Shown one piece after another: positions 15,986 to 18,426 of a stretch of DNA of 64,000 nucleotides. Source of the DNA: Eledone cirrhosa (Eukaryota); contig OZ024752.1 in NCBI GenBank assembly GCA_964016885.1, forward strand, positions 3,596,001 through 3,660,000. The letters are read 5' to 3'. The position numbers and the translations under genes were made by a program. The notes under the pieces are model-generated. The model did not search any database. It had not been told where the DNA came from and saw only the letters and a list, made by a program, of their open reading frames with translations. Each line of letters begins with the position of its first letter. Within the stretch, counting starts at the first letter, position 1.

Positions 15986-16135
15986 CAGTATTTTCCGTTG
16001 TGTTGTAATATAAATATTACACACAGTAGATTATCAGCTCACGTAGAGTTTGCTCGACGGTTCCAGTTGTAGTTCCAAAAGTAATCCGGAGAAAAATAGA
16101 AAGATTTGAATGGATACAGTTTAGTTGAAAGGAAT

Positions 16136-16252
16136 TTATTGACACGTGTTTCTATAACAGTTACATAACCTAAAACAGCTATCTACAAACTTTTAGTTAT
16201 GCAGACATTCAATATTTCAATGTTATTATTTACTGTCATTTCATCAGAATAA
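16136..16252 (-). ncRNA. Type I hammerhead ribozyme with long branched stem II (left arm)
   Basis: Mirror of 18270-18386: TCATCAG at 16241-47, GACACGTGTTTC at 16141-52. Confidence 0.75.
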
Positions 16253-18269
16253 TATTACTGAGGAGCTATTTAGTTTTTATAGAGAATATTAGGAGGGAGG
16301 GGTGAAGTTGTTAGAAGAATAGTTGAAGGAGTGGTTTTTCGATAGCAGTGAGAATTCTTGGTGGCAGTGAGTAATTAGATTCCCATCTGTTGTTTTGACA
16401 TTTTTTATAGAATATATTATTGGTTATTTTTCTAAATCTATAGAAGGATTAGAGATAGTGAAGATATGCGTGGTTGGTTTTGTGTTTGCACTTAATTAAC
16501 ATTCAGACTTAAATTTTTCTTTCAAGTGTACGTATCCTTTCACCCACGCATTCACACACAAATATATTTGCACACCTCTACAAAATACATATACACACAA
16601 TTCACATATTCATACTTACATATATATACACATGCATACACATATATATACACACATGTATTCATGTACATACATACGCGCTCATGTGTATACATTTTCA
16701 TACTCAACTTATCTTTATATACACACGTATAGACACACACATATATACATACATACTCTAGTCCATGTGTACACACATACACATACATACACATCCATAT
16801 ACACATATATACATACACATATATACATACATATATACATATACATATATATATATATATATATATATATACATATACATACATACACAAACATACATAT
16901 ACACATATATACATATATATACATATATAAGCACTTTAATACATGAATACACTTACATCTAACTATACACATCAAACATATATATATATTTACTTATTTA
17001 TATACATTTTCACATATATATACATACTTATGGACGTTTTTAGACACATTCATTATCGCATATTTGTACCTCTTCTCATCAGCATATCTTTTCATTATTA
17101 GTATGGTAATTTAAGGTTATTAATATATGTTGAGAAGAGATTGTTTTTATATTTTTCTAACTAGATTAAGGTTTATATAGTTGGGGGATGTCCCTCTTTT
17201 ATGTAATATTCGGCTTGTAGTGGGAAAAAAGGGTTTTAGTTCTGTGACGGCAGAACGAACATTATTCTGCCGTCACAGAACTAAAACCCTTTTTTCCCAC
17301 TACAAGCCGAATATTACATAAAAGAGGGACATCCCCCAACTATATAAACCTTAATCTAGTTAGAAAAATATAAAAACAATCTCTTCTCAACATATATTAA
17401 TAACCTTAAATTACCATACTAATAATGAAAAGATATGCTGATGAGAAGAGGTACAAATATGCGATAATGAATGTGTCTAAAAACGTCCATAAGTATGTAT
17501 ATATATGTGAAAATGTATATAAATAAGTAAATATATATATATGTTTGATGTGTATAGTTAGATGTAAGTGTATTCATGTATTAAAGTGCTTATATATATA
17601 TATATATGTATATGTGTGTATATGTATGTTTGTGTATGTATGCATATGTATATATATATATATATATATATATATATGTATATGTATATATGTATGTATA
17701 TATGTGTATGTATATATGTGTATATGGATGTGTATGTATGTGTATGTGTGTACACATGGACTAGAGTATGTATGTATATATGTGTGTGTCTATACGTGTG
17801 TATATAAAGATAAGTTGAGTATGAAAATGTATACACATGAGCGCGTATGTATGTACATGAATACATGTGTGTATATATATGTGTATGCATGTGTATATAT
17901 ATGTAAGTATGAATATGTGAATTGTGTGTATATGTATTTTGTAGAGGTGTGCAAATATATTTGTGTGTGAATGCGTGGGTGAAAGGATACGTACACTTGA
18001 AAGAAAAATTTAAGCCTGAATGTTAATTAAGTGCAAACACAAAACCAACCACGCATATCTTCACTATCTCTAATCCTTCTATAGATTTAGAAAAATAATC
18101 AATAATATATTCTATAAAAAATGTCAAAACAACAGATGGGAATCTAATTACTCACTGCCACCAAGAATTCTCACTGCTATCGAAAAACCACTCCTTCAAC
18201 TATTCTTCTAACAACTTCACCCCTCCCTCCTAATATTCTCTATAAAAACTAAATAGGTCCTCAGTAATA

Positions 18270-18386
18270 TTATTCTGATGAAATGACAGTAAATAATAAC
18301 ATTGAAATATTGAATGTCTGCATAACTAAAAGTTTGTAGATAGCTGTTTTAGGTTATGTAACTGTTATAGAAACACGTGTCAATAA
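18270..18386 (+). ncRNA. Type I hammerhead ribozyme with long branched stem II (right arm)
   Basis: TTATT CTGATGA(18275-81) aATGACAGT...ACTGTTATa GAAA(18370-73) CACGTG TC AATAA; GUC triplet, palindromic stem III, 88 nt stem II. Confidence 0.75.
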
Positions 18387-18426
18387 ATTCCTTTCAACTA
18401 AACTGTATCCATTCAAATATTTCTAT

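Follow-up and report, generated by a model that had tools for sequence, protein, structure and literature searches.

Head-to-head insertions of a young Penelope-like element in Eledone cirrhosa carry one end of each of two kinds

Analysis of a 64,000-nucleotide stretch of DNA (the window) revealed that a palindrome in it is one insertion of a young, high-copy Penelope-like element (PLE) into a (TA)n tract, made up of two 5'-truncated copies placed head to head. Insertions of this family end at only two points of the element, +1 and +116. Each two-armed insertion bounded by two such ends has one of each kind, and the additional 115-nt tail can be on either arm. The reading preferred here, with a probability of about 0.7, is double priming: both nicked strands of the target would prime reverse transcription at two sites of the RNA, and the resulting cDNAs would be joined by microhomology.

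Results

Structure of the palindrome. The preliminary description placed a 2.3-kb palindrome at 16096..18426. The inverted repeat was confirmed (arms 16096-17255 and 17265-18426, with the 9-nt spacer CGAACATTA between them), but the insertion begins at 15981, because the left arm has a 115-nt tail that is absent from the right arm (Table 1). This tail is the sequence that succeeds the pLTR end in tandem copies. The arms differ by 7 substitutions, 4 of which are outside the TA/TG-rich stretch, and one 2-nt indel, and they are identical over the inner 333 bp of the palindrome. The arm differences named in the preliminary description, GAGCTATT versus GACCTATT and CAGACTT versus CAGGCTT, were both found. 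Also as described there, both arms read outward from the centre as FCRHRTKTLFSHYKPNIT followed by a stop and then by a UTR of about 1 kb with a TA/TG microsatellite. The (TA)n flanks of the palindrome extend for about 1 kb on each side.

The right arm starts 12 nt further 5' (the ERTL codons) than the left arm. The parent element reads ...ACAGAATTGAACGAACATTATTCTGCC across the junction region, and contigs of three sequencing runs continue likewise; the 9-nt spacer, with 3 more bases, is therefore part of the right arm and not foreign sequence. The left arm is 5'-shorter yet 115 nt longer at its 3' end and therefore is not a copy of the right arm. The earlier statement that the sequence folds back is not supported, as the 5'-shorter arm has 115 nt that are missing from the longer arm. 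The position of the centre inside the last codons of the ORF is incidental; junctions in this family occur all along the element.

Table 1. Features of the palindromic insertion and its flanks in the window
Feature	Position	Strand	Remarks
(TA)n target tract, left flank	14960..15980	.	
115-nt tail, element +2 to +116	15981..16095	-	left arm only; its terminal TATAT abuts the (TA)n target
Left arm, 5'-truncated PLE copy, -1108 to +116	15981..17255	-	tail-bearing, 5'-shorter
Mirror copy of the hammerhead-like motif, left arm	16136..16252	-	
Last 18 codons and stop of the ORF (FCRHRTKTLFSHYKPNIT), left arm	17199..17255	-	
Head-to-head junction	17253..17255	.	3-nt microhomology GAA, common to both arms (4 nt when the parent may be any other copy)
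Last 22 codons and stop of the RT-EN ORF (ERTLFCRHRTKTLFSHYKPNIT)	17253..17321	+	
Right arm, 5'-truncated PLE copy, -1120 to +1	17253..18426	+	tail-less, 5'-longer; includes spacer 17256-17264
TA/TG compound microsatellite in the 3' UTR	17591..17749	+	mirror copy ~16716-16929; pattern differs between source lineages
Type I hammerhead-like motif	18270..18386	+	5-bp stem I, CUGAUGA, ~88-nt stem II, GAAA, 2-bp stem III around the palindrome ACACGUGU
(TA)n target tract, right flank	18427..19383	.	pure TA, target-site duplication not readable

Parent element. Searches covered a 3.0-Gb genome of 1,796 contigs. A 28-mer at the ribozyme end gave 3,012 exact matches in this genome (reversed control, 0), and 135 places run from the tail into the 5' UTR. 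A 261-nt query from the palindrome centre yielded 928 candidates, and nearly all of the best 40, which were scored, were 100% identical from window position 17253 onward. The parent monomer, taken from a partial tandem (L032), has 3,539 nt, with an ATG at +166 and a stop at +2487, counted from the pLTR end. Among loci L031-L140, 11 copies bear the ATG, and 3 of these are in frame to the normal C terminus (773, 773, and 765 amino acids). It had been proposed that an arm be used to find full-length parents with RT plus GIY-YIG and that the palindromes are directly linked to autonomous PLEs. The parent was found, with a 773-amino-acid ORF upstream of the arm homologues; each arm thus represents the 3' end of an autonomous PLE.

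Loci L032, L034, L036, L061, and L078 show pLTRs formed by partial tandems, 5'-truncated copies in inverted orientation, and a tail on one side. In L034, L052, L061, and L078, individual arms exceed one monomer in length, reaching 5.9 kb, and derive from either tandem transcripts or a circular RNA. The 3' region of the element was detected in 16 sequencing runs of 12 studies under several organism labels, with no RNA run among those listed and 3 runs matching at 95-99% or better; the family is therefore not confined to this assembly.

The parent protein (P0001) is a single 773-amino-acid ORF with YRDD at position 364. Pfam returned no match for P0001, P0002, or P0077, and a search of the PDB with P0001, by sequence and by profile, gave nothing meaningful. 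The AlphaFold model of P0001 (pLDDT 87) had telomerase RTs as top Foldseek matches (E 3e-9). Scoring of 7,999 candidates gave 104 homologues at 30-44% identity, and P0001 was combined with the 56 near-full-length ones in a profile of 57 sequences. This profile matched the RVT_1 plus GIY-YIG ORF of locus L145, from the same genome, over 598 columns (probability 97.8, E 1e-12). Residues 691-780 of the L145 ORF match Pfam GIY-YIG, and IIYKC...YYVG of P0001 aligns to the GIY-YIG motif there. These matches point to a telomerase-related RT in P0001, as well as to a GIY-YIG endonuclease at its C terminus.

In the accessible text of PMC8557442, the Hydra clade of C-terminal EN+ PLEs is defined by RWK, a change of DKG to DKT, a CxCX5C linker, the absence of CCHH, and CxxC and CxH near conserved E and N; (TA)n insertion and a canonical hammerhead ribozyme are further traits. 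P0001 has RWK at 49, DKT at 133 (DK[TS] in 94 of 105 proteins), CNCTYPDNC at 643-651, CKLCNLE at 741, and CRH at 769. CCHH is absent, the Cys pair and the second His of the L145 CCHH being unmatched. P0001 is without the traits of the Neptune clade (CX2-5CxxC linker, CCHH, and DKG), which the L145 ORF, from a second family, has. TA runs are present on both flanks at 49 of 54 two-ended loci. Judged by motifs and (TA)n targeting, the parent PLE appears to fit the Hydra clade, and the family may already figure in the family lists of PMC8557442.

End points of the insertions. Exact matches to an end followed by TA numbered 1,425 for +1 and 1,088 for +116. All end tallies come from contig C1. The first 100 +1 ends among the matches listed fall in its first 186 Mb and were compared with the 83 +116 ends listed for that interval (17 later ones were dropped). 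Among these matches, 49 neighbour pairs within 10 kb were obtained: 46 head to head, 2 direct, and 1 convergent. All 46 head-to-head pairs were mixed (+1/+116), with none +1/+1 or +116/+116 among the matches listed. In 110 fetched loci and the window, 72 inverted junctions were found; 59 are bounded by +1 on one side and +116 on the other, 13 adjoin a piece that is internal or cut off, and no like-ended junction was seen among the 72.

The tail-less arm reaches further 5' in 32 of the 59 insertions and the tail-bearing arm in 25, with 2 equal (p=0.43 against even). Because the tail is on the 5'-shorter arm in these 32, simple fold-back cannot give them. At 13 of the 72 junctions, the partner arm is confined to the tail and does not overlap the long arm, so that it was not copied from the latter; 9 of these 13 tail-only arms stop at +72 to +93, in a predicted hairpin. 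Among the pattern-list loci L061-L120, chosen irrespective of end structure (n=60; 25 paired and 35 unpaired matches), 34 were inverted and 26 had one orientation. Together with the surplus of +1 ends, the latter indicate that a second arm is frequently lacking, lost, or too short to be noticed.

Arm divergence and junctions. With the low-complexity UTR left out, arms of the same locus differed at 55 of 25,876 positions (0.21%), whereas the median distance to other arms was 0.70%. In 33 of 41 loci, no other arm was closer than the partner. Across 42 loci, 72 minor alleles were common to both arms versus 9 discordant (4 of these next to the target), while 47 variants were private to one arm and 22 private to both. 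Microsatellite patterns vary between lineages and match within loci. The arms of a locus share a source; the shared alleles fit one RNA, two RNAs of one source, or later conversion alike.

In the window, 4 of 688 sites distinguish the two arms, each change being private to one arm; one shared-private variant and one shared minor allele are present as well. These differences thus fit two arms ageing apart, and conversion is not needed, though the shared-private class would be compatible with it. Arm divergence had been suggested as a check for gene conversion, and the palindrome had been said to persist despite the expected instability. No sign of conversion was seen at the window locus (4 arm-private changes versus 1 shared-private), and a special account of persistence is unsupported, as the family is very young (median of 0.7% between arms of different loci).

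Junctions were scored with all copies as possible parents. Among 71 resolved junctions, 57 were insert-free and 14 had 1-73 inserted bases; several insertions consist of three or more pieces. The inserts and the multi-piece insertions indicate that extra template jumps occur. Overlap of at least 2 nt was found at 35 of the 57 insert-free junctions versus 17.7% at random, an excess somewhat inflated because the best of many parents was used. Target-site duplications were informative at 10 loci with an interrupted TA flank, among 54 loci with both exact ends: 6 have an 8-bp duplication and 4 have none. The 5' offset between arms is mostly hundreds to thousands of bases; in the window it is 12. 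Offsets of 15 nt or less occurred in 5 of 43 pattern-sampled loci (window excluded) versus 0.64 by permutation (p=5e-4).

Hammerhead-like motif. The core in the right arm comprises CUGAUGA (18275-18281), GAAAC (18370-18374), and GUC ending at 18381, with AATAAA next. The preliminary description had reported a GUC hammerhead overlapping AATAAA; a hammerhead-like core is indeed present in both arms, with GUC directly before AATAAA, but Rfam gave no hammerhead at the gathering threshold for the whole window or at an E value of up to 10 for 18200-18430. A three-stem hammerhead fold is possible (-20.4 versus -24.2 kcal/mol unconstrained), stem II being unusually long, and the core motifs are kept in 75 of 77 arms. 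The predicted cut after GUC at 18381 is 44 nt upstream of the element end and +1 site, and the RNA template would therefore have to be uncleaved or circular. A helix bringing the two end sites together was present in minimum-energy folds (z -2.05); with longer flanks, no long-range pair between the end sites had a probability above 0.3.

A second family. Another palindrome in the window (42666-43113) has perfect 202-bp arms centred on GATC and a tail of ~41 nt on the right arm. It is the 3' end of a second young PLE family, unrelated to the first, with an RVT_1 plus GIY-YIG ORF and Neptune-type motifs read by eye (L145 and L148); no hammerhead core was found near its 3' end in L148. The exact ends of this family number 4,770 and 3,370. 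A tally of 100 and 70 ends among the matches listed, over 70 Mb (30 later ones were dropped), gave 49 head-to-head pairs, all 49 mixed-ended, and 1 further, direct pair. Nine of the 49 pairs share a 421-nt spacing, and the three that were fetched are palindromes centred on the parent GATC, in which the side of the tail varies and the alleles come from different lineages. This suggests that such palindromes formed more than once, where both copies end at a single self-complementary site. Both families are very young and have thousands of copies in this genome, which suffices for end counting. Insertions of both adjoin in the same TA tracts in the neighbourhoods of L102 and L088 (C1:62559857 and C1:18135523-18135908).

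Other PLE traces in the window. The CxHR..K ending of the ORF had been matched to PLE remnants at 32253 and 44109. The endings CKHRLQKT and CQHRTLKT are present, at 32397 and 44277; the positions named were those of the remnant starts. Both remnants (32253-32444 and 44109-44303, plus strand) are endonuclease C termini that are 33-34% identical to the parent C terminus (E 6e-5 and 3e-5). No DNA match between the parent and either remnant was found, and they therefore belong to two other PLE families. The remnant at 32253 directly follows a broken LINE-like RT region (~30100-32100), which is similar to 11317-12235 on the other strand. At 41304-42296 (plus strand), a decayed remnant of another Hydra-like PLE extends from the RT thumb to GIY-YIG with several stops (tblastn E values down to 2e-41 versus the homologues).

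Related stretches in both orientations at 60696-60879 and 62598-62801, with a minus-strand hammerhead core with a 5-bp stem I at ~60847, are probably ends of another PLE family. The region 59520-59640 contains a palindrome with 55-bp arms and a 3-nt spacer beside a TA tract, in which GAAAC-AGTACT-AGTC resembles the 3' half of a hammerhead. Inverted repeats are also present at 63347-63899, 3700-4230, and 58265-58502, and the one at 63542-63765, which has a duplicated 17-mer at its centre, lies in a TA tract enclosed by an outer inverted pair. A hammerhead-like core (CTGACGA...GAAAC) at 21783-21870 (plus strand) is located between direct repeats 21478-21564 and 21966-22049.

Discussion

Double priming would proceed as follows. 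The element protein would nick both target strands, and each nicked 3' end would prime reverse transcription at one fixed RNA site, either +1 or +116. By analogy with the protein studied in PMC11167929, as far as its accessible text describes it, the two end points may be taken as the priming sites. The 3' ends of the top strand in the left flank and of the bottom strand in the right flank would prime antisense cDNAs, which would lie head to head with their 3' ends outward and would be joined at the cDNA 3' ends through a few bases of microhomology. The target duplication would be the stagger between the nicks, which agrees with what was observed. The model implies that the two nicks are staggered, with 3' overhangs of 8-16 nt, and probably that the protein is a dimer; joining could be by host end-joining or by template switching of the RT.

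One start at each site would explain why paired ends are mixed, why either arm can bear the tail, and why some arms consist of tail sequence alone. The near-perfect symmetry in the window would result from both cDNAs having stopped near the same RNA position, which places the locus in a minority class of about 1 in 9. Symmetric cases of this origin would favour one RNA template, and it is somewhat more probable that a single RNA molecule served both primers than that two RNAs from one source did. The 26 one-orientation loci, the 4 duplication-free sites, and the multi-piece insertions count against double priming, which is proposed from sequence evidence.

The reading preferred in print for head-to-head palindromes (PMC3846280, accessible text) is that one cDNA or antisense transcript primes itself into a hairpin; an endonuclease then resolves the ends, and one arm keeps the tail, which is also ascribed to such resolution in the accessible text of PMC8557442. 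The shared source, the microhomology, and the near-symmetric class would all be accounted for in this way, and the window junction, with a 3-bp stem and a 9-nt loop, resembles a snap-back. However, an arm copied from the other must be 5'-shorter and cannot go beyond its template, yet it is the shorter arm that has the tail at this locus and in the 32 insertions mentioned above, and the longer arm that has it in 25. A cut of fixed polarity would place the tail on one kind of arm. Where the partner arm lies wholly in the tail, a +1 end would need cutting in an unpaired loop, and the usual large 5' offsets speak against a hairpin as well. Fold-back is considered unlikely, and the counts exclude its simple form for most insertions.

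Two independent insertions, or an inverted duplication at the DNA level after insertion, homogenised by gene conversion, would agree with the greater similarity of arms within loci than between loci and with the 22 shared-private variants, 1 of which is at the window. Independent insertions should give like ends about half the time, whereas none were seen in 46 and 49 pairs among the matches listed. DNA duplication would copy the end with its flank and not exchange +1 for +116. The 8-bp duplications flank the whole two-armed unit, and conversion at the window is disfavoured by 7 other arms that resemble the short arm more than its partner does. Such an origin is very unlikely. Even less credence is given to the window palindrome being an artefact of assembly or of long-read fold-back. 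No record from 4 sequencing runs spans the centre, and contigs of 3 runs enter the parent ORF instead; these runs are collapsed contigs of a repeat with several thousand copies, so that a single locus cannot show in them. The arms differ at 7 sites and one indel, the tail is on one arm only, the outer flanks differ, and the locus obeys the end rule of the whole family.

Double priming may apply more widely. There is roughly an even chance that PLEs integrate by obligatory two-site, two-strand priming, in which an asymmetric dimer would grip a single RNA at the two tail boundaries, the halves of the dimer would each prime from one nick of a cut staggered by 8-16 nt, and the cDNAs would be joined head to head. 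One rule would then cover inverted copies, the one-sided tail, the target duplication, and palindromes across clades, here a Hydra-type family whose tail is 115 nt and a Neptune-like one whose tail is ~41 nt. Exact coordinates are now available for in vitro work. PLEs would also be routine makers of kilobase palindromes, of which there would likely be many hundreds in this genome.

Comparison with known systems

LINE-1 twin priming has both target strands priming on one RNA and leaves an inverted junction with microhomology. Its two cDNAs correspond to parts that do not overlap, and the position of the second site varies. In the family described here, both cDNAs would cover the same 3' region from two fixed sites, which gives an inverted duplication.

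PLE insertions with inverted 5'-truncated copies, a tail of 30-40 nt often at one end, duplications of 8-10 bp, and (TA)n targeting are described in the accessible text of Arkhipova et al. 2013 (PMC3846280) and Craig et al. 2021 (PMC8557442). The insertions studied here share with these the inverted 5'-truncated copy next to the 5' end, the one-sided tail, the duplications, the microhomology junctions, and the partial tandems. The tail is 115 nt here. In both papers, as far as accessible, the tail is optional and self-priming or endonuclease resolution is favoured, whereas here there is strictly one end of each kind, on either arm. The origin of inverted one-tailed PLE insertions is given as open in the accessible text of PMC8557442 and PMC11167929, self-priming being the published guess. 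Neither a strict one-of-each rule nor double priming as the source of PLE inversions was found in the literature within reach, which did not extend to older subscription papers; the accessible text of PMC13282606 and bioRxiv 10.64898/2026.07.22.740005 has nothing on palindromes.

With the Hydra clade, as far as it is described in the accessible text of PMC8557442, the parent element shares one ORF with RT and C-terminal GIY-YIG, the motif set, a hammerhead-like core, and the (TA)n target. The monomer is 3.54 kb here, whereas the described families are generally below 3 kb (PMC8557442); the greater length is due to the 1-kb 3' UTR with its microsatellite. Stem II of ~88 nt, the 115-nt tail, and thousands of near-identical copies are further differences. 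A very active Hydra-type family with intact ORFs, and with a tail three times the described length, is thereby added.

A biochemical parallel is the Poseidon protein PAc of Anolis (Frangieh et al. 2024, PMC11167929), which in vitro, according to the accessible text, cleaves both strands and extends them, initiates at two RNA sites bounding the tail, is predicted to form a dimer, and uses uncleaved RNA as the main template; inverted insertions are not discussed in that text. Two RNA start sites bounding the tail (proposed ones here), an AT-rich target, and a hammerhead cut (predicted here) upstream of the starts are common to both systems. PAc belongs to a different clade and starts without homology, whereas the proposed start sites here have TA-like stretches of 3 and 5 nt that match the target; they precede the ATG at +166, on that side of the tandem junction which belongs to the 5' UTR. 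Measured against the accessible parts of these sources, the structure type is published and the window locus alone is ordinary; what is new is the end rule that holds across the family.
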